IMG/VR virus record: IMGVR_UViG_3300035182_001152
DNA length: 64,000 bases
Strand: one strand, 5' to 3'
DNA from: a virus
Lineage: Duplodnaviria > Caudoviricetes
A model generated the notes under the pieces. The model worked only from the letters and a program-made list of their open reading frames with translations, had not been told where the DNA came from and did no database searches. The position numbers were made by a program, and so were the translations under genes. The stretch's first letter is position 1. The number at the start of each line of letters is the position of its first letter. Shown in pieces: positions 43,708 to 55,465 of the stretch.

Positions 43708-45036
43708 ATGTCAGCATATCAAATCGACTTCTCAGATCCACTCAAGAATGGTTTTGCCATTTCTGATGGTAGCTTTAACGGCCCAGGTGGCTCCTCTGCA
43801 AATACATCGCTACGGTTGTATGGCCGTGGCGCACGTGAATGGGGTGAGGCAGTTGACGAGGATTTGGTCCGTCTGACTGAAAACTTCGCTGCTGCTTCAG
43901 CACCAAGCGTGCCGATTGCAGGCCAATTCTGGGTTGAATCATCTCTGTACTACCGCGACACATCGCTGGGAAGCGTTCTGCAAGGTTGGTACTTCTACGA
44001 CGTCAATTCTGTAGCAACGAACAAGTGGACACTTCTTGGAGGCACTGGCGTTGTCTCTGGTACAGCTCCTCTGTCGCCAGTTGAAGGACAGTACTACTAT
44101 GACGGTGGTGTTAACCAGCTGCAGGGCTATTTCTCACTTGGCCGCTATGAACCTCTGACATGGGTCACTCGTTCCAGCATGTCAGGTACAGGTGCTCCCG
44201 TATCGCCAGCCGTAGTCCCTCTCCAACAACTTCGTGTGTGGAACGCAGGCACAAGCGCATGGGTTTCCCCTTCTGTCACAGCTGTCACTGGTGGCACCCC
44301 ACCAGTTGGTGCTGTAGTGGGTTCGTTGTGGTTTAACACCACTACAGGTAACCTGCTTGTTTGGACGGGGGCGCAATGGCAACAACTGGTAGGTCCTGCC
44401 ATTTCTGGCGGGACATCAGCTGTCTCTGGTATTCTGAACATGAATACCTACAAGATCACCAACCTCGGCGCCCCGTCAGTTAGTACCGACGCCGCAACCA
44501 AGGGATACGTTGACAGTGTTGTTGGCGGCGTCGGTGGCTTCCTACCGCTAACAGGTGGTAGTCTGGCTGGTCCAGGCAATCTGAGTGTTGGTGGCACGTT
44601 GAACGTTGCAGGACTGGCTACTCTCGGCTCGGGCTACGTAAACTCAACGTTCTACGCTAACGTTGCTACGTTTGGTAGCACGGCAACTTTCAACTCAGGT
44701 CTGACATCTGTTGGTACAATTAACATCACCACTGGTAGCCTAAACGTCGCTGCTGGCGGCGGTAGCTTCAACGGCACGGTCAACGTGAACGGCTACAAGA
44801 TTGTCAATCTTGCAACTGGTACAAACGCCAACGACGCTGTTAACGTAGCACAAATGAATGCTGCCATTGCGGCTGGTGGTGTGGGTGCAACAACACCTGT
44901 AATCTACACCTCAGGCACTTATAAGGCTGGCGACATCTGCATTACCGGCGGTAAGATCTACATAGCAGTCGGTGGCGGTAGCGGTATCGCCCCGGGTGGT
45001 AACTGGAAACAAATCTGGCCTGCAACATACAGCTAA
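43708..45036 (+). CDS. Fibre-like virion protein
   Basis: N-terminal TSLRLYGRG..EWGE...LTENFA...P.P.AGQFW domain (paralog of 53654); Trp repeats; KITNLGAP..STDAATKGYVD and KIVNLATG..NDAVNVAQM fibre motifs. Confidence 0.8.
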   Translation: MSAYQIDFSDPLKNGFAISDGSFNGPGGSSANTSLRLYGRGAREWGEAVDEDLVRLTENFAAASAPSVPIAGQFWVESSLYYRDTSLGSVLQGWYFYDVNSVATNKWTLLGGTGVVSGTAPLSPVEGQYYYDGGVNQLQGYFSLGRYEPLTWVTRSSMSGTGAPVSPAVVPLQQLRVWNAGTSAWVSPSVTAVTGGTPPVGAVVGSLWFNTTTGNLLVWTGAQWQQLVGPAISGGTSAVSGILNMNTYKITNLGAPSVSTDAATKGYVDSVVGGVGGFLPLTGGSLAGPGNLSVGGTLNVAGLATLGSGYVNSTFYANVATFGSTATFNSGLTSVGTINITTGSLNVAAGGGSFNGTVNVNGYKIVNLATGTNANDAVNVAQMNAAIAAGGVGATTPVIYTSGTYKAGDICITGGKIYIAVGGGSGIAPGGNWKQIWPATYS

Positions 45037-45045
45037 AGCATAAAC

Positions 45046-46455
45046 ATGCCTCAAATCTCTACAACAACATCCGTTCCATCTGGATATGTAATCAGCACGA
45101 TGCAATCAGTCATCACTGCACTGATTGCAGCAATGGCAAGCGGCCAGACGGTGTATGCGTCTGACATTCGCTCAATGAACTCGAGTGTCTATGATCTCTG
45201 GCGAACCCACGCTCACACGGTGACAGACCGCCAAGGTATCGACACTTACGGTAACTTGACCGTGTACGGTAGCGGAGGAACGTCTATCGTCAACACCGCT
45301 TCAAACCTTGCGCTTGGCGCCGTGACAACTCCCTCTGGCATCGCTGCAGATCAAGTGATTACAGCCGCAGACATCAACGTGATGATTAACATGGTCAATT
45401 CCATGCAGTCACACACCCATACGATCACTGATAGTATCGGTGCTATATACTCGTCTCCAAACATCAATTTCTATTTCAATGGTTCTCCTAATCTGATCTC
45501 GGGTACAGACAGTGATGGCACTACCGGTGGCGATTATGCGAACATAACGTTTAAGACAGACGGGACGCTATTTCCCGAGGCACGTGGCACGTATTACTAC
45601 GGTGCAGTACAAGCTAACAACTGGATGACAAACAGCCCTGTTGATGCATTAACAGCTACAGGTTACCAGATTAAGGCACACATGGTAAGCGCAGATCTGG
45701 GGTATTGTCACTGGGGTGCTGGAACGTTTGACGCATGGTTGAATCTTGGTGTTAGTAACCTTGTTTGGTCGTGGGTGCAAAACAACGCGGGCGACTACGG
45801 TCAAGCAGTTGTTCAATTCCAAATCCGCGACATTAACACGCTAACGATTCTTGTTGACACACATGTGACTTTTCAAACCGGCTTTATTGCACCACTATCA
45901 CACTGCTGCTTCCCTGCGGATTCTTTCGTCTTAATGGACGATGGTAAGTGGAAGAAGATTCAAGACGTGAAGGCGGGTGATGTTGCCATGGGTATGGGCA
46001 AGCCCGTGATGATCAACAGCGTAGAGAAGCCACGTCTAGGCGAGCGCAGGATGATGCAATTTGGCGACAAGTCGCTGGCGTGGTCAGAAGAACACGCAAT
46101 GTGGACCCGCGACAACGCAGGTTCACAGTGGTGGTGGTCTGCTAACGCTGATATGTGGCGTGCTGAAGTGAGTGTAGGCGTAATGGGCGGGTTGAAGGAC
46201 AACTCAACGATGCGCTCTGGTACCAATGTGTCTGACTGGGCTCACCTGGATGGCTGGAAGGCTAATACTGTGACTACGATCCCTGCAGACGCAACGACTC
46301 CATTGTATCTCCCACGCACGGGCGGTTCTCCTATTATCGTCAACGGCTACGTTGTTGGCGCTGGTGTTGATGAAACCGGCTTTGAGTACTCAAAGCTGGA
46401 CTGGGATGCTGTACGCGCAATGCTTCCTGTTGTTGACCCACTCCCAACAGCGTAA
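45046..46455 (+). CDS. Hint (Hedgehog/BIL-type) domain protein
   Basis: Hint starts at Cys288 (45907): CFPADSFVLMDDGKWKKIQDVKAGDV; block B-like SEEH; ends IIVNGYVVGA without terminal HN. Confidence 0.8.
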   Translation: MPQISTTTSVPSGYVISTMQSVITALIAAMASGQTVYASDIRSMNSSVYDLWRTHAHTVTDRQGIDTYGNLTVYGSGGTSIVNTASNLALGAVTTPSGIAADQVITAADINVMINMVNSMQSHTHTITDSIGAIYSSPNINFYFNGSPNLISGTDSDGTTGGDYANITFKTDGTLFPEARGTYYYGAVQANNWMTNSPVDALTATGYQIKAHMVSADLGYCHWGAGTFDAWLNLGVSNLVWSWVQNNAGDYGQAVVQFQIRDINTLTILVDTHVTFQTGFIAPLSHCCFPADSFVLMDDGKWKKIQDVKAGDVAMGMGKPVMINSVEKPRLGERRMMQFGDKSLAWSEEHAMWTRDNAGSQWWWSANADMWRAEVSVGVMGGLKDNSTMRSGTNVSDWAHLDGWKANTVTTIPADATTPLYLPRTGGSPIIVNGYVVGAGVDETGFEYSKLDWDAVRAMLPVVDPLPTA

Positions 46456-46476
46456 GGTAATAACGAGGGAACAGAT

Positions 46477-46680
46477 ATGTCAGAAAACCTAAGTACAAAA
46501 ACGACGACATCCCCTGCGGTTCCGAATGTGAACCCAGGAGACCCAATTACGTCTACCACGTTTGAAGCAATGCTGAACGTGTTGAACGAACTCGTGAACC
46601 ACACTCACATTTTCTACGACGACTACAGCACTGCGTGCAACTGTAACTGCAACTGCGCCTGTTCACGCGGCATCCTCTAA
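46477..46680 (+). CDS. Cys-rich peptide, candidate radical SAM substrate (C-terminal CNCNCNCAC)
   Basis: GAGGGA SD, 67 aa, five Cys in the last 14 residues, directly upstream of radical SAM genes. Confidence 0.8.
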   Translation: MSENLSTKTTTSPAVPNVNPGDPITSTTFEAMLNVLNELVNHTHIFYDDYSTACNCNCNCACSRGIL

Positions 46681-46698
46681 CAGAGGCGTTATAACCAT

Positions 46699-47595
46699 AT
46701 GAAATACATCCTTGTTCGCCAAGGAGGTAATCGTGCTTCTGCCTTCTCAGACATCGTTGAGCAGGTCAATTATCAAGACGTACCCCAGGTTGGCTTCTAC
46801 ACGCAAGTAGCACCGAGTATGCGGTTAATTCGTAACCGCACTACCGACAATCACGATTCCCCCTTTGCGATTGCCCGATTCCACGTCGACCCAGCACTGA
46901 AGGTCCAGCCTCCGTCACACTTTCGTCGAATTGACATGAGGGCTGTCGAACGGATGATGACAAACCACAAGTACGTGATATACGGTGTCGTCAATCCAAC
47001 TCACCACGTAATTGATCACACAGTCCTTGACGGTGCTGTGTACGTCGCGCGGGATGCTGACGGTAAGTTGATCAATGCCCAAACAGGAGATGTCCTTGGT
47101 GACTCCAAGGTAACGTTTATGACGGTGTTCTTTGCGTTTGTGCGCGTCAAGGGGTTGCCGATCTATCTGATGGTACTCAATCCAAATCTACTCAGTGCGA
47201 CGGATGGGTTTGATTGTTATCACGAAGAAACGGACACCAAGTGGATCATGTTGCCGGAACGTGACAACGCGCTGATCGAGCGAGTGTTTACGCCGCAAAT
47301 ATATGACGGCACGTTGATTGGTAATGTGATTGTGCGCGATGAGGGTGATGGACAGCCGATGATCCAACTGTTCAACGATCCATGCGGCATCCTGTACGAC
47401 GAAAAGCACCTTCGCTCTGATGTGTTCATTAACGGTGTCGCAACGATTGATACCAATCTAAGCGTGTTTACAATGGACGGCGCTGTCCGCATTAGCAGTC
47501 AAGGCCGTGGGTACGTTCGAATTGTATTTGACCTTGGTGACTACTTCAATCTGTCACGGACCGAACACCCTGCACTGGAGTACGTCGTACTATGA
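46699..47595 (+). CDS. Hypothetical protein in radical SAM operon
   Basis: 298 aa; GAGG SD; stop overlaps next ATG. Confidence 0.75.
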   Translation: MKYILVRQGGNRASAFSDIVEQVNYQDVPQVGFYTQVAPSMRLIRNRTTDNHDSPFAIARFHVDPALKVQPPSHFRRIDMRAVERMMTNHKYVIYGVVNPTHHVIDHTVLDGAVYVARDADGKLINAQTGDVLGDSKVTFMTVFFAFVRVKGLPIYLMVLNPNLLSATDGFDCYHEETDTKWIMLPERDNALIERVFTPQIYDGTLIGNVIVRDEGDGQPMIQLFNDPCGILYDEKHLRSDVFINGVATIDTNLSVFTMDGAVRISSQGRGYVRIVFDLGDYFNLSRTEHPALEYVVL

Positions 47596-49262
47596 GCACA
47601 GCTGTCATTAAGTTCTACCCAAAGCGAACACTAACGCAAGCCCAACAGCAACGGATTGTTGATCACCAACCTTCCGTGCGAATCAATGACGACGGCACAT
47701 TTGATACGTCTGTCCGCACAATCATCACCCCAAAAGGCGATGTCAAGGAGGTGTCGTATAAGACGATTCGTCCAGGTGTGCACGAGCGAATGATGAAGAC
47801 AGCTGACGTATATGACTTGTTTGAAGACCTTCAACACATGAACCTGATTGTCACAAACGCGTGTAACCTCAGTTGTTCCTACTGCTACGAGCAGCATAAC
47901 AAAGATTACGGTCGATTCACAAACGAAAGCCTAAAACAGCTATACAACTTCCTCGTCGCGTGCAACCCAAACAGCGGCAAGCTGTTTCAGTTCTTTGGTG
48001 GCGAACCCCTGATCCACAAGCAGTTGATTCTCGATTTTATCGCCAAATATCGTGACGAACTGCAGGCAAACAGTAAGACAACTGCCGTTAGCATTATCAC
48101 CAACGGTATTCTGTTAACGCCAGAATTCATCAACGAGTACTTTGCGAATGACTTCGTTTGTATGAGCGTTAGCCTCGATACGGATGATGCTGAGATTGAT
48201 CACCGTGAGATTGGCCAGGCTCGGATCGACAAAATCATCAACATGATTGGTCTAATCCCCTCGTACCACAAAGACAATCATATGGTTAGCGTCCGTTGCA
48301 CGATCGCAATGGAGAATGCTCCGCGGCTAGTTGAGTTCGCCAAACGCTTGTATGACAAGGGTCTTCGAGCAATGGTAATTCATCCGCTGACGATGAGTTC
48401 CGTTAACGGCCACATGATATGGAATACTGAAGATTGGAACAACCTCCACACTAGCGTTAGCCACATCATCAAGACGCTGCCTAACTTCGAGGTTCAATTC
48501 TCAGAGGGTGTCGGTGCCAAGGGCGGCAACAACTGCATGGTTGGTTCTGACATGATCGCTGTTGACGCGTCGGGTGATTACTCCGGTTGCCATTTCTTCA
48601 CAAACCAGAAGGAGGCGGCCGCTCATACGATCCTTGGTAACTTGCTGCTGGACCAAGTGTACGTTGACCGGTACATGAAGTTCCAAGAAACGTACGACCA
48701 GATGTTCACATCGGAGCCACAATGTCAAGCCTGCGATCTCAAGGGTTTCTGCTACCAATGCCCTGCAGGCAATTCTGATTCTGGTCGTGGCCAGCTGTTC
48801 CGGCCAGACGATATGTGCCAGAGCATTGTACGTCTGTTCCTCGAACTGCAGAATGACATCGTGCGCAAGACATTCAACGCTAAGCTACAGGAGCTGATTG
48901 GTTCTGTACAGCAGTACGGTGAACACTATGTGTTCAGTAAGGCAATTGTACACCTCCACCACTTCTACAAGAATGGTCAGCATGCCACTGACGTTCAAGT
49001 TGATCCCAACCTCCCATACGAATACCTCGCCGCCGGTTTTATGGCAACAATTACCGGTGGCGACGCTAGCGTTCCGGTTGACATCAAGAGTTTGTATGAG
49101 GCGTTGATGCGCAGTAAGGGCAAACCAGTTAACGCGAGTATGGCACAGGGTACAGCTGATGACATCAACAAGCGTATCTTCTACCTAGCCCTACTACACA
49201 TGGTTGTGCTGAACAAGAAGGGTGATGACTTGTCAAAACCGCACAAAATCATTAAGCTGTAA
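47592..49262 (+). CDS. Radical SAM/SPASM maturase 1
   Basis: CNLSCSYC, FFGGEP, ITNG, NNC...GDYSGCH, CQACDLKGFCYQC...C. Confidence 0.93.
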   Translation: MSTAVIKFYPKRTLTQAQQQRIVDHQPSVRINDDGTFDTSVRTIITPKGDVKEVSYKTIRPGVHERMMKTADVYDLFEDLQHMNLIVTNACNLSCSYCYEQHNKDYGRFTNESLKQLYNFLVACNPNSGKLFQFFGGEPLIHKQLILDFIAKYRDELQANSKTTAVSIITNGILLTPEFINEYFANDFVCMSVSLDTDDAEIDHREIGQARIDKIINMIGLIPSYHKDNHMVSVRCTIAMENAPRLVEFAKRLYDKGLRAMVIHPLTMSSVNGHMIWNTEDWNNLHTSVSHIIKTLPNFEVQFSEGVGAKGGNNCMVGSDMIAVDASGDYSGCHFFTNQKEAAAHTILGNLLLDQVYVDRYMKFQETYDQMFTSEPQCQACDLKGFCYQCPAGNSDSGRGQLFRPDDMCQSIVRLFLELQNDIVRKTFNAKLQELIGSVQQYGEHYVFSKAIVHLHHFYKNGQHATDVQVDPNLPYEYLAAGFMATITGGDASVPVDIKSLYEALMRSKGKPVNASMAQGTADDINKRIFYLALLHMVVLNKKGDDLSKPHKIIKL

Positions 49263-50050
49263 TGATGAAAACAACACACATTGCATTTTACCAAGACGCT
49301 CTGTACGACTGTCCTCTTCTCCGTGGTCAGGTGCTAACCGATATCGACGACCTGCGACTGTTCATGGAATATCACGCATTCGCAGTGTGGGATTTCATGT
49401 CGCTGATCAAATCGCTCCAGAACCATATTGTACCGTCGGGCAATGTGTGGCTTCCGTCACCCGAATCGACAGCTGTTGGTCGATTGATCAACGAAATTGT
49501 CCTGTGCGAGGAAACAGACGACAACCTCGGCGGTGGTCATATTAGCCACTTCGATCTGTACATCACTGCGATGAATGAAGTTGGCGCCAACACAAAGCCG
49601 ATCCTGTCATTCATCAACAAACTGCGAACCAATCGCAAGCTCAGCTTAAACCAGTTGCTGCTAGAACTCCCTCTGCCAGCACGGAAGTTCTGTGAGAGTA
49701 CTTTTGCAGTAATTGCTACCGATCAACCCCATAAGATTGCCGGGGCGTTCGCCTTTGGTCGCGAACGGGTAATCCCGTCAATGTTCACGCAGATCCTCTC
49801 TCAGATGGAGGCCACTGGAATCCAAGCACCAAAGTTCAAGTACTACCTTGAGCGTCACATTGACGTTGACGGGAACGCACACGGCCCAGCTGCGCTTGAT
49901 ATGGTTGATTATCTGTGTGGGGATGACCCAGTCAAGCACCTGGAAGCGGAACGAGCTGCATTGGATGCAATCCACGCTCGGATCACGCTATGGAAGGACG
50001 TACAGCGAGTGATTGAAGACGTCAAGCGTGTCAAGTTTGGAGCAGCATGA
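49262..50050 (+). CDS. DUF3050-like heme-oxygenase-fold diiron oxidase (HDO)
   Basis: FMEYHAFAVWDFMSL, INEIVLCEETD, SHFDLY, FAFGRE..IP, YYLERHIDVDGNAHG. Confidence 0.82.
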   Translation: MMKTTHIAFYQDALYDCPLLRGQVLTDIDDLRLFMEYHAFAVWDFMSLIKSLQNHIVPSGNVWLPSPESTAVGRLINEIVLCEETDDNLGGGHISHFDLYITAMNEVGANTKPILSFINKLRTNRKLSLNQLLLELPLPARKFCESTFAVIATDQPHKIAGAFAFGRERVIPSMFTQILSQMEATGIQAPKFKYYLERHIDVDGNAHGPAALDMVDYLCGDDPVKHLEAERAALDAIHARITLWKDVQRVIEDVKRVKFGAA

Positions 50051-51120
50051 CGACACCAACACTCTCCGGATGCAAGAATATCAGCATCTACCTCGGCAAT
50101 GTTTGCAACTTCAATTGCACATATTGTGACAGAGACTACATCAAGGAGTCGATCGGTGGTCAACATATGACCACCGAGGATATTCCAAAGATCGTTGAGT
50201 TCCTCCAAGCTTCTGGTATAGCTGACAACCCCCCGGAAATGTTTAGCTTCCATGGTGGTGAGCCGTTCACATACGTCAAGATCATGGACAAAATCATGGA
50301 CGCAGTAACGTCAGCTGTCCCTGGCGACTATCCGCTATACATTCAAACGAATGGTAGCCAGATGCTTCAGCATCGATGGTTCTTTGAGAAGTGGGGTAGT
50401 CGCCTTGAGATTAGCATCAGCTACGACTTCTTGTACCAAGACATTAACCGCACCCTGTTTGAGATCAACCCTACGCTGGAAATGTTGAACCAGAACGGTG
50501 TTCGTGGAATCCAGTTCCAATACGTGATGCCAATCTCTAATCCGAAGGTGTTTAGCCTATCAGCATTGAAGGCGATCACTAACTTGTGCCACAAGAACGG
50601 TGTCAAACGGGTTAACCTAATCCCACTGCGGCACATTCGGGGCAAAGACAAGTTCAAGGTGATCCTTGACGACCTTGATATTCCACAGTTCTTCGATGCG
50701 TTCATCAAGTTCATCCACATGCTGTATGTGATGAACATTGACGTTACAGTTGATGGTCACGGTGTTGGATTTGACAAGCACTATTTCTACAACCATAAGT
50801 TAATGGTGTTGTCACCAGATGGTAACATCTATCCCGAATACGACTTCCTCGAATACAAGCGCGAAGAGACGATCATCGGTCAGTGGCGAGAGCAGCAAGT
50901 TATCGAGCGTGTCCGTGATAATGAAGATGACATGCTGCAACCGAAGTGTGTTACGTGCCCATCCCGCCCACTGTGTGGGCTAAAGTACTTACATGGGATG
51001 TTTGGTACTGACCCAGCAACGGATAAGTGTGCGCAGTTCTATCAGATGCTGATGGTTACGATCCAGCACGCACAAAAACTAAAACAACAACCAAGCTTCT
51101 TGCATTGGGTCGGAATATGA
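50047..51120 (+). CDS. Radical SAM protein 2 with partial SPASM domain
   Basis: CNFNCTYC, FHGGEP, QTNG; DGNIYPE (Cys replaced); CVTCPSRPLC...C. Confidence 0.9.
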   Translation: MTTPTLSGCKNISIYLGNVCNFNCTYCDRDYIKESIGGQHMTTEDIPKIVEFLQASGIADNPPEMFSFHGGEPFTYVKIMDKIMDAVTSAVPGDYPLYIQTNGSQMLQHRWFFEKWGSRLEISISYDFLYQDINRTLFEINPTLEMLNQNGVRGIQFQYVMPISNPKVFSLSALKAITNLCHKNGVKRVNLIPLRHIRGKDKFKVILDDLDIPQFFDAFIKFIHMLYVMNIDVTVDGHGVGFDKHYFYNHKLMVLSPDGNIYPEYDFLEYKREETIIGQWREQQVIERVRDNEDDMLQPKCVTCPSRPLCGLKYLHGMFGTDPATDKCAQFYQMLMVTIQHAQKLKQQPSFLHWVGI

Positions 51121-52301
51121 CAACAGAACAACGGCACTTCACACCCAGTGTACAGAACGTAACGAACTTCAAGGAATACTTCCTACAGTACGACGGGTTG
51201 AATCACGTCAGCCAAGAGCTTGGCTTTTCCCTGTTTAAGCGGTACACGTGTAAAGCAGGATGCAAGATGTGTTACTTGCAGAACGACTGGATCGCTGACG
51301 AAGACTTCGGTATCTTCATTCCAAAGGAAATTGACGATCACACTGAAGCTCGCCTTTTGTCATTCTTTGAAGCGTTTTCTGACGTCGGCACGTATGATGA
51401 TTTGGCATATTTGAAACGAGCGCACCCACACCTGTATGAGTTCTACAAGAAGCACAGCCACCGCCTCGTTAATACATCAATGTCAGACACCGCTTTCATT
51501 CAGCAGTACCCACTGCTGATGAATGAGCTCAACTTCAAGGGAATCTACGAGATTACGTTTAGTGATGTGTTCCTAAACAAAAAGAGTGGTGGCTTAGCGC
51601 ATGATATAGTCAATATGCTGAAGCCTCTCCACGCAAAGATGCCCCTGCTAAAGATCAAGGTTGTACGAATCACACAGGAAGGTGAGAAGTCTGATGCCGT
51701 CAAGAAGGTCGTCGACTATGCACACAGTATTGGCATAGCAGTTGGCCTGCAAGACGATATCGTCAAGGGCGACAACAACAAGTTGAGCCTTGATGTTGCT
51801 GACTACCAAGAGCTGAATTATTTCGCTCAAGGGTCTGAGCCGATGCAGGTCCTATCAGAGATTACCTACCTGCAATACACGTCGTCGTTTATGACCCTGA
51901 CCGACACAGTATCGCCAACAAGTGTTCCATTCTTTGATGTATTGTCAACGGACGACATCAGCGTATTCCTGTACAACTCCTTAGATGCTAAGTTAAAGAC
52001 GTACACCCGATACACCAAGGAAATGGATAACACATGCGGCAACAAGCTGTTCGACTACTTTGCGTACGTATCAACGTCGGTTGTGCTACATCCAAAGTTT
52101 AACTTCATCCCCCGGATGTCGCTGAAGCCGTGGACGGCAATGTACCATAAGCTGATAGCTCAGGGTTGGACGGAGACCAAGCTTGGTCTGTATCGACCGA
52201 ACGGTGAGCCAGTGACACCAATCTTTACGATCAGCACAAAGCCAAAGCAGAAAATCTATCACATCCCAATCAAGTGCACTCCTGTAGGAGCAACTGTATG
52301 A
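51117..52301 (+). CDS. Divergent radical SAM-like protein 3
   Basis: CKAGCKMC (CxxxCxxC) near N-terminus; no GGEP or SPASM seen; ATG 51117 overlaps previous TGA. Confidence 0.65.
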   Translation: MTTEQRHFTPSVQNVTNFKEYFLQYDGLNHVSQELGFSLFKRYTCKAGCKMCYLQNDWIADEDFGIFIPKEIDDHTEARLLSFFEAFSDVGTYDDLAYLKRAHPHLYEFYKKHSHRLVNTSMSDTAFIQQYPLLMNELNFKGIYEITFSDVFLNKKSGGLAHDIVNMLKPLHAKMPLLKIKVVRITQEGEKSDAVKKVVDYAHSIGIAVGLQDDIVKGDNNKLSLDVADYQELNYFAQGSEPMQVLSEITYLQYTSSFMTLTDTVSPTSVPFFDVLSTDDISVFLYNSLDAKLKTYTRYTKEMDNTCGNKLFDYFAYVSTSVVLHPKFNFIPRMSLKPWTAMYHKLIAQGWTETKLGLYRPNGEPVTPIFTISTKPKQKIYHIPIKCTPVGATV

Positions 52302-53584
52302 GTCTGACCAAATTTGAGATCGTTCGCACAGGCGAACATTTCTACTACAACAACGAGAACAACGGCTTGCTGGACGCCAACGGTAACAGCCTTAGCCGTG
52401 CTTTTGTACCCCCAGCTGATTGGAATCAGCTGGAAGACCGATTCGGTCGCACAGATGTTGTCAAGAACCCCGAAACAATCAAGATCACCCTGGGGCACGG
52501 TTGCAATTACAGTTGTGGCTACTGCATGCAAAAGGACATTGGCAATCCCGACGAGCGACCGGTCAATGGTCTAACACCAATGCTGATCAGCAAGATCCGC
52601 CGCCACCTGGATCTGTCTGAGACGACACGGATTGAACTGTGGGGCGGTGAAACGCTACTGTATTGGAAAGACATGATGCCGATCATGGAAGAATTTGATC
52701 GTGAGGGAGTTACTTGGTACATCCCAACCAATGGTACTCCCCTGATGCACAAGCACATTGACTTCTTCATGAGGTTGAAGGGCAGGGTTGCAATGGGGAT
52801 CTCTCATGATGGGCCTGCGCATGAGATTACGCGAGGCAAGGAGTTCCTGCACAAGAAGGTTGACGTGTTCAAGCGGATCGAAACGGAGTGTGGTGAGCAG
52901 GTACAGTACAGCTTCAACCCCGTTATCAGTCGTACAAATTACGATCTGTTCGAGATCAACGACTTCTTTGTTCGATTCTTTGACGAGCACAGCTTGAAGT
53001 ACAAACAGCTGAGTTTCGAACTCGGGCGCGTGTACGACGAGACGATGGCAAAGAACTCAACGCACCACGTGATCAATGGTGAGCATATCCCAGCGTATAG
53101 GGACGTTCTGACGCGATACATGGATGCTCATATTGAGCAATTCCAACGGCTTGGTGGGGTTACACAAGCTCCCCTACTGGCGAACAATCTGTTCCATACA
53201 GGCATGGGCGTTCTCCCGTATGTGCGTTCGCTGCAGGAGCAAAAGGTTCCCTTGTTGAAGACGAACTGCGGGGTGGACGACAGTCGGTTGATGAGCATGG
53301 ACACGATGGGCAACGTCCGCACCTGCCAAAACACCGACGAATCGTACAATGGCGGCAACTTGATGTACATCAAGGGCATTCGAATCCAACGTGTTGATCT
53401 CAATCGTGATGCACACTGTGGGTCATGTGAAGTCCGTCGTCTCTGCAAGAGCTCATGCCCACTTGACCTCGGATCGGCAACGTTCCAAACCAATTGTGCT
53501 GTTGAGAAGACGCACTACCGGGCGATCCAGTTGGCTGCATTCAAGTTGTTGTTTGACAGTGAGATTCGCATGATTGGCCAGTGA
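52298..53584 (+). CDS. Radical SAM/SPASM maturase 4
   Basis: CNYSCGYC, LWGGET, PTNG, TNCG...GNVRTC, CGSCEVRRLCKSSCP...C; ATG 52298. Confidence 0.92.
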   Translation: MSLTKFEIVRTGEHFYYNNENNGLLDANGNSLSRAFVPPADWNQLEDRFGRTDVVKNPETIKITLGHGCNYSCGYCMQKDIGNPDERPVNGLTPMLISKIRRHLDLSETTRIELWGGETLLYWKDMMPIMEEFDREGVTWYIPTNGTPLMHKHIDFFMRLKGRVAMGISHDGPAHEITRGKEFLHKKVDVFKRIETECGEQVQYSFNPVISRTNYDLFEINDFFVRFFDEHSLKYKQLSFELGRVYDETMAKNSTHHVINGEHIPAYRDVLTRYMDAHIEQFQRLGGVTQAPLLANNLFHTGMGVLPYVRSLQEQKVPLLKTNCGVDDSRLMSMDTMGNVRTCQNTDESYNGGNLMYIKGIRIQRVDLNRDAHCGSCEVRRLCKSSCPLDLGSATFQTNCAVEKTHYRAIQLAAFKLLFDSEIRMIGQ

Positions 53585-53613
53585 TGTCTGACGGAGAGCG
53601 GATGTGCAAACCC

Positions 53614-53620
53614 ATAAATA
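53614..53620 (+). promoter_or_regulatory. Late promoter (ATAAATA)
   Basis: CCCATAAATA upstream of 53654. Confidence 0.7.
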
Positions 53621-53653
53621 CTCACACATCCATCTCACGGAGTTAGGCATACA

Positions 53654-55465
53654 ATGACCAATTACGTATTCAAGCACAGCGACCCTGCAGCAGGTTCGTT
53701 TCTAGTTCAAGCAGACCAGATCGACGGTACGTCGCGTCCTGGTAATGCGGCATTGTACATCAACCCCGTCTCAGGCCTCTCTGCAATCTCAGCCAATTCC
53801 TCTCTCGTCTTCGCTGGACAGGGAATTGTTGACTACGGCGAACTAGTGCAGAACAATCTGATCTACTTGATGGAGCACTTTGCCTATGCAACACGCCCTC
53901 TAAAGCCTGTACAGGGTCAGATTTGGTACAAAAACGCAGCAGGTGTAGACCCGTCCTTCCCGAGCGACCCATCTTCGGTCGGTCTTTATCTGTGGACAGG
54001 ATCACTCTGGACGCCGATCATTACTGGTGCAGGCGGCGTACTTGACATGGGCGGCGCTCGTGTAGCTAACGTTGGAGATGCAATATCCGCCGGTGACGCA
54101 GTTAGCCGTGGCTACGCAGATGCACGCTACTTGCAGCTGTCTGGCGGCACAATGACCGGTGCAGTTATGGTTGCATCAGGCAACTGGACATTTAATTCCG
54201 GCGTTTCTCTGTCAGTGACAAACGCTCCGACAACCAGTTTGCATGTTGCCAATAAGGCATACGTAGACGCTGCTTCTGCCACGTCTGCCGGCCTAGTTTC
54301 TACTGAAGCTACTACCCGCGCAGCAGCTGATAGCGCACTTTCGTCCAGCATCTCTACGATCAACTCACAACTGCCAAACTTTGTTCAAGTTACTGGCGAT
54401 ACGATGACAGGCACACTGTCGATCGACTCTGGCGGTGGTATCGTTGCCCTCAACGGTTCCGGCACTATTAGTTTTGGCTCTCGTCGCTTGCAGCTCGTCG
54501 GAGACCCTATTCTAAACACTGACGCGGCAAACCGAATCTACGTTGATACAGCGATCGCTACGGCAATTGCGGGCGTTGGCGCTGGATCTAGTGATGGTGT
54601 AGTTGTTAGTGGTGACTTGAATTCATCAACTGGCGTGTTGACTCTTCAGCGCAGCATGGGTCTCTCAGACGTGGTTGTAGTCGGCTCGTTCGCTCCATTC
54701 TCACACGCCCACCCTGCGACCGCGGTTACATACGATCTGTCGTACGTGTATCCACAAAGCTACTTGACGACGTCGGAAGTAGGTGACACAGGCTTCCCCA
54801 ATGTCCAACTGCAAGACATTATTCGCACAATTGACCAAAATTTGACGACATTGAACCGTTGCGTTGTTCGCAAATTGGCCGTCGGCGACGGCATAACTAC
54901 TACATATTCCGTAGGCGCTGTTGGTACCTACACTGTGGGAGATAATCGTCTGCAGGTGTTTGTTGATGGTGTCAAACAGTACGCTAGTGAGCACGGGATC
55001 AGCACTGTTGTATTCACAGATACGGGTATTGGATATCGATCAGTAATCCCAGGCGTCACGGGTGCGCCTCTCGTGTTCAACATCGCAGTGGACAGTGGTC
55101 CTCCAACAACTGTTTCAATTCCAACAGGGGCGGGATACACGTACTTGCAGTATTTCATTGACCTGCAGGCTGCTTTTAGTACACTGTCTATCCCTGCACA
55201 AGTTCGTGCGGACCAATTCTTTGACCGCATTGAGTTGTACTTTGTGTCCAACACTTCAGGTGCAGGATCTAGTGTATTAGTATCAAACACAGCAGGCCAA
55301 GCTTTTACTGTGATTACCACAGCGTCTGCGCCTGTTAACACGTCTGTGACAACGTCATACTCCTACAGCGAAGTCGGCAACCCTGGTGCAGATTCAACCT
55401 CCATCACATTCAACGTAGCACCTGATGCGGGTTCTGTTGTTGAATTTCTAACCTTCCCTGCTTAA
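53654..55465 (+). CDS. Fibre-like virion protein (paralog of 43708)
   Basis: SSLVFAGQG..DYGE...LMEHFA...P.QGQIW; DAVSRGYAD, ANKAYVD, AANRIYVD repeats. Confidence 0.8.
   Translation: MTNYVFKHSDPAAGSFLVQADQIDGTSRPGNAALYINPVSGLSAISANSSLVFAGQGIVDYGELVQNNLIYLMEHFAYATRPLKPVQGQIWYKNAAGVDPSFPSDPSSVGLYLWTGSLWTPIITGAGGVLDMGGARVANVGDAISAGDAVSRGYADARYLQLSGGTMTGAVMVASGNWTFNSGVSLSVTNAPTTSLHVANKAYVDAASATSAGLVSTEATTRAAADSALSSSISTINSQLPNFVQVTGDTMTGTLSIDSGGGIVALNGSGTISFGSRRLQLVGDPILNTDAANRIYVDTAIATAIAGVGAGSSDGVVVSGDLNSSTGVLTLQRSMGLSDVVVVGSFAPFSHAHPATAVTYDLSYVYPQSYLTTSEVGDTGFPNVQLQDIIRTIDQNLTTLNRCVVRKLAVGDGITTTYSVGAVGTYTVGDNRLQVFVDGVKQYASEHGISTVVFTDTGIGYRSVIPGVTGAPLVFNIAVDSGPPTTVSIPTGAGYTYLQYFIDLQAAFSTLSIPAQVRADQFFDRIELYFVSNTSGAGSSVLVSNTAGQAFTVITTASAPVNTSVTTSYSYSEVGNPGADSTSITFNVAPDAGSVVEFLTFPA

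Follow-up and report, generated by a model that had tools for sequence, protein, structure and literature searches.

In a 64,000-nucleotide stretch of DNA from a tailed virus, an uncultured giant phage (Duplodnaviria; Caudoviricetes; IMG/VR record IMGVR_UViG_3300035182_001152), hereafter called the window, a gene at positions 46477-46680 encodes a 67-amino-acid peptide in which every second residue near the C-terminus is cysteine. The gene lies between tail-fiber-like genes in a cassette that also encodes four radical S-adenosylmethionine (SAM) enzymes. We lean toward the interpretation that this peptide is an enzyme-cross-linked, fiber-associated protein that supplies, from a gene of its own, the final piece of a three-module fiber-type protein. 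A more far-reaching proposal, which we put forward only tentatively, is that phages apply to their own particles the radical SAM chemistry known from RiPPs (peptides that are ribosomally synthesized and then post-translationally modified). By this proposal, a split histidine-metal "knot" is followed by a strand that is multiply stapled with thioethers by up to four radical SAM enzymes, and the same occurs at the fiber tips of unrelated siphoviruses, where a Hint domain cuts itself off afterward.

A short gene under selection at the protein level

The peptide and its parts are as follows.

46477..46680, + strand: 67-amino-acid peptide gene with an ATG start; open reading frame (ORF) with the Cys array
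Residues 1-25: variable N-terminus
Residues 26-41, 46552-46599: amphipathic helix
Residues 42-48, 46600-46620: HxHxxxD
His42 to Cys62: period-2 strand, running into the Cys array
Residues 54-62, 46636-46662: Cys array
46663-46677: tail SRGIL

A GAGGG sequence resembling a Shine-Dalgarno site is located about 9 nucleotides 5′ of the ATG. The C-terminus of the 67-residue product reads ...HTHIFYDDYSTACNCNCNCACSRGIL, and when split by parts its end is ...HTHIFYDDYSTA-CNCNCNCAC-SRGIL. Cysteines 54, 56, 58, 60 and 62 (46636-46662) are encoded by TGC, TGT, TGC, TGC and TGT. An initial annotation, made by a model from the letters alone, had described the ORF, the five cysteine positions and the mixed TGC/TGT codons, and each was verified on the window sequence. 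Among the alternating-Cys runs of the window, this one is the sole run placed in a gene; three shorter runs fall in minus-strand frames.

Codon differences between relatives reveal how the gene evolves. Over the conserved 39 codons, synonymous differences outnumber non-synonymous ones by 22 to 6 in locus L016, by 20 to 6 in L006 and by 20 to 7 in a third close relative. The peptide gene is under purifying selection at the protein level, and because this selection acts on the protein, we conclude that the peptide is translated. Moreover, because synonymous changes greatly outnumber non-synonymous ones, repeat slippage alone cannot account for the Cys array. The preference of the initial annotation for protein-level selection over slippage is thus borne out by the synonymous excess over these codons, although array length still varies, with 3-6 cysteines over the family. 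The number differs even between the near-identical phages JWF and 2-1.

The peptide has many relatives. A word-based search returned 66 homologs (E values from 1e-14 to 1e-26), many of them on contigs of 200-360 kb, and a further 73 representatives of 50%-identity clusters came from an exhaustive profile search. There are 35 peptide loci in IMG/VR, and overall the family comprises about 140 relatives from metagenomes, IMG/VR and the Ralstonia jumbo phages RP12 and RP31. Each of these two phages has an unannotated ORF of 65 amino acids for a peptide homolog. In RP12 the gene is at 9001-9198 of L001, and in both phages it is missing from the GenBank and RefSeq records. The other cassette genes of both phages are annotated as "hypothetical", with the one exception of a RefSeq "radical SAM" label. 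The collection of homologs next to phage radical SAM genes that the initial annotation had proposed was made; it defined the invariant core residues and revealed the cassette to be recurrent. In close relatives, M32, L36, L39, H42, H44, D48, D49, Y50, C54 and N55 are invariant, as are C56, N57, C58, C60, C62, R64 and G65.

Outside this set, no relative turned up when 185,579 bacterial and archaeal reference genomes were scanned with two conserved patterns, megablast of 45000-54000 against isolated phages found no DNA match, and a sequence search of the PDB with the peptide profile returned nothing meaningful. A promoter and terminator scan gave a number of sites not above that of shuffled sequence. 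Four DNA sequencing runs from microbial mat and sediment metagenomes contain the stretch without any difference; a contig breaks at 46614-46657 in one run of low depth, which is uninformative. No RNA run is listed among those that contain the stretch.

The cysteines continue a conserved face

The spacing of the peptide is rigid. In 125 of 126 family members, the first cysteine comes exactly 12 positions after the first histidine, and H42 and H44 are invariant in 119 distinct sequences. From His42 to Cys62, conservation has a period of two: mean entropy is about 0.5 bits at the even-numbered residues, against about 1.8 bits at the odd-numbered ones. This periodicity, together with the fixed register, indicates that the cysteines extend the conserved face formed by His, His, Phe, Asp, Tyr and Thr. 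The preceding helix has heptad-like hydrophobic positions at 29, 32/33, 36 and 39/40.

The residues between the cysteines are also restricted. Asn (317), Gln (54), Asp (22) and Glu (8) make up 85% of the 472 such positions in the family. The array of the window contains the overlapping N-x-x-C motifs N55-C58, N57-C60 and N59-C62, and relatives substitute E, Q or D for N. The suggestion in the initial annotation that Tyr and Phe residues might also be crosslink sites holds up for Tyr50, which is near-invariant family-wide (Tyr or Trp), but not for Phe46 and Tyr47, which vary.

Some family members hold the array inside proteins of 230-256 amino acids, and one member of 256 amino acids extends beyond the array with a proline linker and a further domain. 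Two members, P0121 and P0153, have unusual architectures. One of these consists of module and array, a poly-Pro linker and a Cys-containing domain of 190 amino acids, and in the other the array is split by a Pro-rich insertion. Structure prediction for residues 22-67 as a homotrimer gave a score of 0.02 with an uncertain fold, which speaks neither for nor against a trimer.

Three HxH modules per cassette

The gene immediately upstream encodes a partner with the same histidine motif.

45046..46455, + strand: HxH partner protein, 469 amino acids, with two helix-HxHxxxD modules, then a middle domain and, at the C-terminus, a Hint domain
Partner residues 37-61, 45154-45228: module 1
Partner residues 105-129, 45358-45432: module 2
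45907-46413: C-terminal Hint domain, starting at Cys288

In 32 homologs of the partner, the sole invariant residues are H55, H57, D61, H123, H125 and D129, and in most relatives the partner is a stand-alone protein of 120-160 amino acids. The H, H and D are therefore invariant in all three modules, two in the partner and one in the peptide. A direct BLAST match of the peptide to the RP12 partner ORF074 (E 5e-4) exists as well. On this sequence evidence, the helix-HxHxxxD of the peptide looks like a paralog of the two modules upstream.

The number of modules per cassette is three in every layout. Two modules in the partner and one in the peptide are found in 32 loci, the reverse (1+2) in L051 and L052, and all three in one chain (P0131) in L053. 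Whatever the layout, the array always comes after the last module. A scan of IMG/VR for relatives of P0131 found none. In known fibers and spikes, HxH motifs of three chains form buried octahedral iron sites with six histidines, which are thought to register the chains; such sites occur in the T4 gp37 tip, in R-type (R1/R2) pyocin fibers and in P2-type spikes (PMC6116203).

AlphaFold2 (AF2) modeling of partner residues 1-136 predicts a helical bundle (predicted local distance difference test score, pLDDT, 75.6), for which we found only generic helical-bundle structural matches with Z up to 5.5. A PDB sequence search with the partner domain returned nothing meaningful.

Four radical SAM enzymes accompany the peptide

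The remaining genes of the run are listed below.

43708..45036, + strand: tail-fiber-like protein, 442 amino acids, opening the gene run; matches PHROG tail-fiber families and has a YadA_stalk-like stretch
46699..47595, + strand: all-beta protein, 298 amino acids, with a C-terminal Ig-like sandwich, as predicted by AF2 (pLDDT 86.8)
47592..49262, + strand: radical SAM/SPASM enzyme, 556 amino acids; PF04055 at 7.8e-16
49262..50050, + strand: DUF3050/HamA-type heme-oxygenase-like protein, 262 amino acids; PF11251 at 2e-81
50047..51120, + strand: radical SAM enzyme, 357 amino acids, with one auxiliary Cys set; PF04055
51117..52301, + strand: divergent fourth radical SAM-like protein, about 394 amino acids, with a CKAGCKMC-type CxxxCxxC
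52274..53584, + strand: radical SAM/SPASM enzyme, 436 amino acids; PF04055
53654..55465, + strand: second fiber-like protein, 603 amino acids, closing the cassette; homologous to cassette-flanking fiber-like genes

Labeling of ORFs by iterated profile searches gave 38 non-identical peptide loci. Enzyme and DUF3050 presence was counted in the 29 of these that extend 6.5 kb or more downstream, and 25 of these long loci have the four radical SAM types together on the same strand. Of the 38 loci, 36 contain the 298-amino-acid partner and 32 the HxH partner, whereas 15 of the 29 long loci contain DUF3050. Cassette proteins of related loci are about 25-77% identical to those of the window, and in one sub-group of loci the gene for the 298-amino-acid protein precedes that for the peptide. 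Conservation of the cassette across such divergent relatives indicates that the association is old and selected.

The CxxxCxxC motif is conserved in all four enzyme families, and PF04055 is found in three of the genes. The 556-amino-acid enzyme conserves CxxxCxxC and eight more cysteines in 36 homologs. In NCBIfam it matches PapB best (1.2e-36), with the QhpD type second (2.7e-23); each score is well below the curated cut-off. Because its score against the PapB model NF047865 is 126.7 bits, compared with an equivalog cut-off of 340, this enzyme is best classed as a related superfamily member of the PapB family rather than an equivalog. The full SPASM Cys set is conserved in the 436-amino-acid enzyme and in the 556-amino-acid enzyme. 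Both have at least seven conserved C-terminal cysteines, compared with four in the 357-amino-acid enzyme, which retains CxxxCxxC together with C301, C304, C310 and C328 in 31 homologs.

The fourth radical SAM-like protein has no Pfam match, keeps its CxxxCxxC in 97% of 29 homologs, and is without conserved auxiliary cysteines; its nearest language-model neighbors are viral radical SAM clusters (score 0.96). Its ORF is open from 51027, which would overlap the preceding gene by 94 nucleotides. The start is likely the ATG at 51117, which forms an operon-typical ATGA overlap with the preceding stop and is the start given in Atlas.

The peptide is co-conserved with four radical SAM enzymes, and the residues between its cysteines are of the type used as acceptors; Asn, Asp, Glu and Gln are the acceptor residues of the non-alpha thioether enzymes PapB, QhpD and NxxcB. 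For these reasons, the peptide appears to be the best candidate substrate of its neighboring enzymes.

Cysteine arrays at the ends of fiber proteins

In every phage lineage examined, the cassette lies among fiber or baseplate genes. In L052 it is directly 3′ of Baseplate_J and fiber genes, and homologs of the 442-amino-acid fiber-like protein occupy the same position in related loci. Fiber-like proteins upstream of the HxH genes also share a C-terminal motif, G-x-W-[KR]-Q-[IV]-[WFY]-P-x-x-[YW], which is carried at 44950-45033 in the window, at 577-840 in L051 (a mini-protein of 87 amino acids), at 7323-8717 in L052 and at 7735-8985 in L053.

Arrays are found within fiber proteins themselves in other phages. 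A tblastn search with the 436-amino-acid enzyme yielded five isolated phages, namely RP12, RP31, RSP15, JWF and 2-1, and relatives of this enzyme type (25-28% identity) lie beside the arrays of JWF, phage 2-1, L012 and RSP15. In the Achromobacter siphophage JWF, the fiber part of gp028 ends in N-C-N-C-D-C-N-C-N-C-S-C, and with the last array Cys begins a Hint domain that is 42% identical to that of the window. The gene order after gp028 is an unknown gene of 240 amino acids and then a radical SAM gene. Phage 2-1 gp27 has the JWF layout with one repeat fewer. The metagenomic collagen-like fiber protein P0102 (L012) carries N-C-N-C-N-C-E-C-A-C-S-C before the same Hint type, and is followed by an unknown gene of 235 amino acids and then a radical SAM gene whose product is 25% identical to the 436-amino-acid enzyme. 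In RSP15, the side tail fiber ends in ...NCQCGN, two genes before its radical SAM gene.

As a control, three array-less Hint proteins in type IVb pilus loci were considered, none of which has a radical SAM gene nearby. Although the control is small (n=3), this observation points to the array, not the Hint domain, as the feature that accompanies the enzyme.

A proposed stapled fiber element

The observations on which we build are the gene and its selection, the homology of the modules, the cassette, its fiber context and the array fusions. From these we infer metal binding, oligomeric state, thioether chemistry and virion presence, which can be assembled into the following mechanism. The upstream gene would supply two helix-HxHxxxD modules and the peptide the third, with a motif of the kind that forms six-histidine iron sites in phage fibers and spikes. 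Past the HxH, the peptide would run as an extended strand with its five cysteines on the conserved face and Asn, Gln, Asp or Glu on the opposite one. The four radical SAM enzymes would then most likely remove hydrogen from carbons in the side chains or backbone of the residues beside the cysteines, and these carbons would be joined to the cysteine sulfurs to give several thioether staples of the ranthipeptide or QhpD type. The two SPASM enzymes would be the prime candidates, and it is the 436-amino-acid type that is tied to fiber-borne arrays elsewhere. Such stapling would take place in the cytoplasm, whose reducing conditions prevent disulfide formation. Rather than being cleaved from a leader and exported, the product would remain as a rigid, reduction-proof and covalently locked element of the tail-fiber apparatus, at the end of an assembly of fiber type.

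Several points weigh against this interpretation. The chemistry and the location in the particle are inferred for all family members, and the conserved face that the cysteines share with the His pair and the invariant Asp would also suit non-covalent metal-thiolate binding. All NCBIfam matches of the enzymes are far below equivalog cut-offs, and the 298-amino-acid partner yields no functional clue from its matches. The three-module rule fits two arrangements equally well, a 1:1 pseudo-trimer of partner and peptide and the fission of a homotrimeric fiber; the first implies one array per assembly and the second three. L053 has only two of the four radical SAM enzymes nearby and JWF-type fibers manage with one, so none of the enzymes accompanies the array in all cases.

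In one sub-lineage the array is followed by CC[IV]RGM[VI]W, and two of its loci, L004 and L008, are without a radical SAM gene over a distance of about 10 kb. The protein may work without the enzymes in these cases, or the genes may be located elsewhere in the genome. In L004 (10264-11118) and in L005 (3508-4362), the next gene after that of the peptide encodes a GIY-YIG (LEM-3-type) nuclease and is possibly a homing endonuclease insertion that split the cassette in the sub-lineage lacking nearby radical SAM genes.

The last point against the stapled fiber interpretation concerns L009 (1-14371), where a variant cassette is found among cellular-looking genes (lipoate ligase, RNase PH and Ham1). 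It comprises a peptide ending in CCVRGMVW, two 298-like genes, two radical SAM genes, an FG-GAP/ASPIC protein of 856 amino acids and DUF3050. L009 could represent a cellular version of the system, or a phage with host-like genes. Even so, the scan of reference genomes described above returned no relative.

Alternative explanations and related systems

The initial annotation regarded the peptide as precursor-like and as the main substrate of the cluster enzymes. A classical RiPP would have a helix-HxH leader recognized by the maturases and a cross-linked Cys-Asn core that is excised and, at lysis, set free to act as a diffusible bioactive peptide, perhaps an antibacterial, a signal or a metallophore. 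The small ORF is indeed directly upstream of several radical SAM/SPASM genes, with translational coupling, and the best matches of the enzymes are RiPP maturase families. In addition, the recognition helix and the core are conserved next to a variable N-terminus, and the 556- and 436-amino-acid enzymes bear N-terminal extensions of 70-90 residues, the usual place for a RiPP recognition element (RRE).

However, no protease, exporter or immunity gene was found in the approximately 38 loci, and Pfam, PHROG and NCBIfam scans detected no peptidase or transporter in the cassette or in related loci. No RRE was detected in the N-terminal extensions by a Pfam scan at E<=10, which is a weak search for such elements. 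Furthermore, the putative leader is a module common to proteins of the fiber cluster that follows the three-module rule, arrays are situated within large fiber proteins, and in the protein of 256 amino acids another domain follows the array. The placement of the cassette in fiber modules is kept across very different phages. Of the initial claim, the 25 of 29 loci and the acceptor-type residues support the peptide as the best candidate substrate, whereas the notion of a typical leader-core precursor is not supported: its leader is shared with the partner, the processing and export genes were not found, and arrays are embedded in true fibers. We consider a released RiPP product unlikely.

The system resembles ranthipeptide systems (PapB with freyrasin PapA, SCIFF with CteB, and NxxcB of the streptococcal radical SAM RiPPs, or RaS-RiPPs). 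In both, a radical SAM/SPASM enzyme lies beside a short Cys-rich repeat substrate, and the acceptors Asp, Asn, Glu and Gln of ranthipeptides are the residues that alternate with Cys in the phage peptide. Unlike ranthipeptide systems, the phage cassette has four radical SAM enzymes rather than one, is without a leader peptidase, an exporter or a detected RRE, and spaces its cysteines at i,i+2 rather than as CX3D or NxxC alone. It also resides in tail fiber genes, and its substrate carries an HxH module and is found fused to fibers. The N-x-x-C motif of the RaS-RiPP pair NxxcA/NxxcB is present in the phage peptide, but in a fiber cluster and not in a streptococcal shp/rgg quorum-sensing operon. 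No NxxcB model is among the 25 NCBIfam matches listed per enzyme.

For a product that is kept as a subunit of a protein, the nearest precedent is QhpC, a thioether-stapled enzyme subunit. QhpC is the gamma subunit of quinohemoprotein amine dehydrogenase and is cross-linked by QhpD. There too, a radical SAM/SPASM enzyme puts several Cys-to-Asp/Glu thioethers into a small protein that is retained as a subunit of an assembly. The phage setting differs in being viral and structural, without a dehydrogenase, a quinone cofactor or QhpG.

We judge somewhat less probable still than the released RiPP that the unmodified CxCxC tail binds metal as a thiolate or iron-sulfur site, either in the manner of metallothioneins, for which CxC runs are typical, or as an extension of the HxH site. 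The radical SAM enzymes would then act on another substrate or need the array as a cluster carrier. This possibility draws on the common face of the cysteines and the histidine pair discussed above, and on the two loci that hold the peptide without nearby radical SAM genes. However, it leaves unexplained why 85% of the opposite face is restricted to Asn, Gln, Asp or Glu, why array and radical SAM/SPASM enzyme came to be paired repeatedly and independently in unrelated phages, and why array-less Hint proteins have no radical SAM genes beside them.

The HxH motifs themselves invite comparison with solved fibers and spikes (the T4 gp37 tip, the R1/R2 pyocin shaft, P2 gpV and phi92 gp138), in which three HxH copies converge on one octahedral metal ion. 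The three modules with invariant His-x-His per cassette, constant over all layouts, would fit such an arrangement. Unlike the solved proteins, the phage module is a helix followed by HxHxxxD and may span two chains, and none of the solved proteins has a Cys array or a radical SAM partner. The PDB search and model comparison found no sequence or fold match between them and the phage modules.

Finally, it is very improbable that the FYDDY segment with Tyr50 is cross-linked by radical SAM enzymes, excised and finished by DUF3050 as a peptide-derived cofactor in the manner of pyrroloquinoline quinone or mycofactocin: although radical SAM/SPASM enzymes, a small acidic/aromatic peptide and a heme-oxygenase fold resemble PqqE, PqqA and PqqC in outline, roughly half of the cassettes lack DUF3050, no equivalents of PqqB, PqqD or a peptidase were detected, the invariant Cys array in fixed register would be without a role, and a setting among fiber genes is unexpected for cofactor synthesis.

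Novelty and implications

We searched the literature for radical SAM enzymes in jumbo phages or tail fibers, phage-encoded RiPPs, ranthipeptides and DUF3050 and found no description of this system. An unrelated cyanophage radical SAM gene is merely listed as an "antibiotic gene" (PMC12801897). The enzymes are of a known kind, and the substrate family, the motif with Cys at every second position, the HxH architecture and the fiber context are absent from Pfam, function-assigned PHROGs, NCBIfam, the PDB and the searched literature. New as well are the three-module rule, the 12-residue register with its period-2 face, the acceptor bias and the codon selection test, as are the arrays fused to Hint domains in cultured Achromobacter phages, the pilus control that goes with them and the predicted fold of the 298-amino-acid protein.

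If the more far-reaching proposal is correct, the peptide would be the first virion protein with enzymatic carbon-sulfur cross-links, and the staples would constitute a cytoplasm-compatible replacement for disulfide knots. Were the array both cross-linked and in the particle, radical SAM peptide maturases would gain viral structural proteins as substrates. For virology, this would be a new class of post-translational modification, and for enzymologists a new and very compact substrate motif with Cys at every second residue. The three-module rule is also a clean natural case in which a metal-site protein has undergone fission and fusion. The system is directly testable in cultured phage-host pairs (RP12 and RP31 on Ralstonia, JWF and 2-1 on Achromobacter). 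There is a correction to annotation as well: the peptide gene is absent from the RP12 and RP31 records, and its partners are "hypothetical" everywhere.

Accessory genes and domains

The 298-amino-acid protein has no Pfam, PHROG or NCBIfam match, a word-based homolog search returned only the protein itself, and Atlas yielded nothing of use. A Foldseek comparison of its model with the PDB gave nothing at E<=0.001, and residues 190-298 had only generic Ig-like structural matches with Z up to 6.5 (VIA-wide and AFDB clusters).

The Hint domain is of one type at the ends of the upstream protein, JWF gp028, phage 2-1 gp27 and P0102, and in the last three the array ends at the first Cys of the Hint. 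In contrast to these proteins, most cassette relatives are without a Hint domain, and so Hint is not required for the peptide. Ligation of the partner to the peptide driven by Hint was rejected on the same ground. Relatives of the window Hint that are 49-64% identical end PilV/shufflon-type proteins in L013, L014 and L015, whose pilus clusters hold T2SSE, T2SSF, PilS and Shufflon_N. One autoprocessing Hint module thus appears to be shared by phage fibers and the tip adhesins of conjugative pili.

The position of DUF3050 varies between loci, and the gene is accessory. Two cassettes without DUF3050 have a gene for a 2-oxoglutarate-Fe(II) oxygenase (PF13759) at their edge, at 6934-7422 in L051 and at 9880-10461 in L008, and these enzymes may replace DUF3050 as an accessory oxidase.

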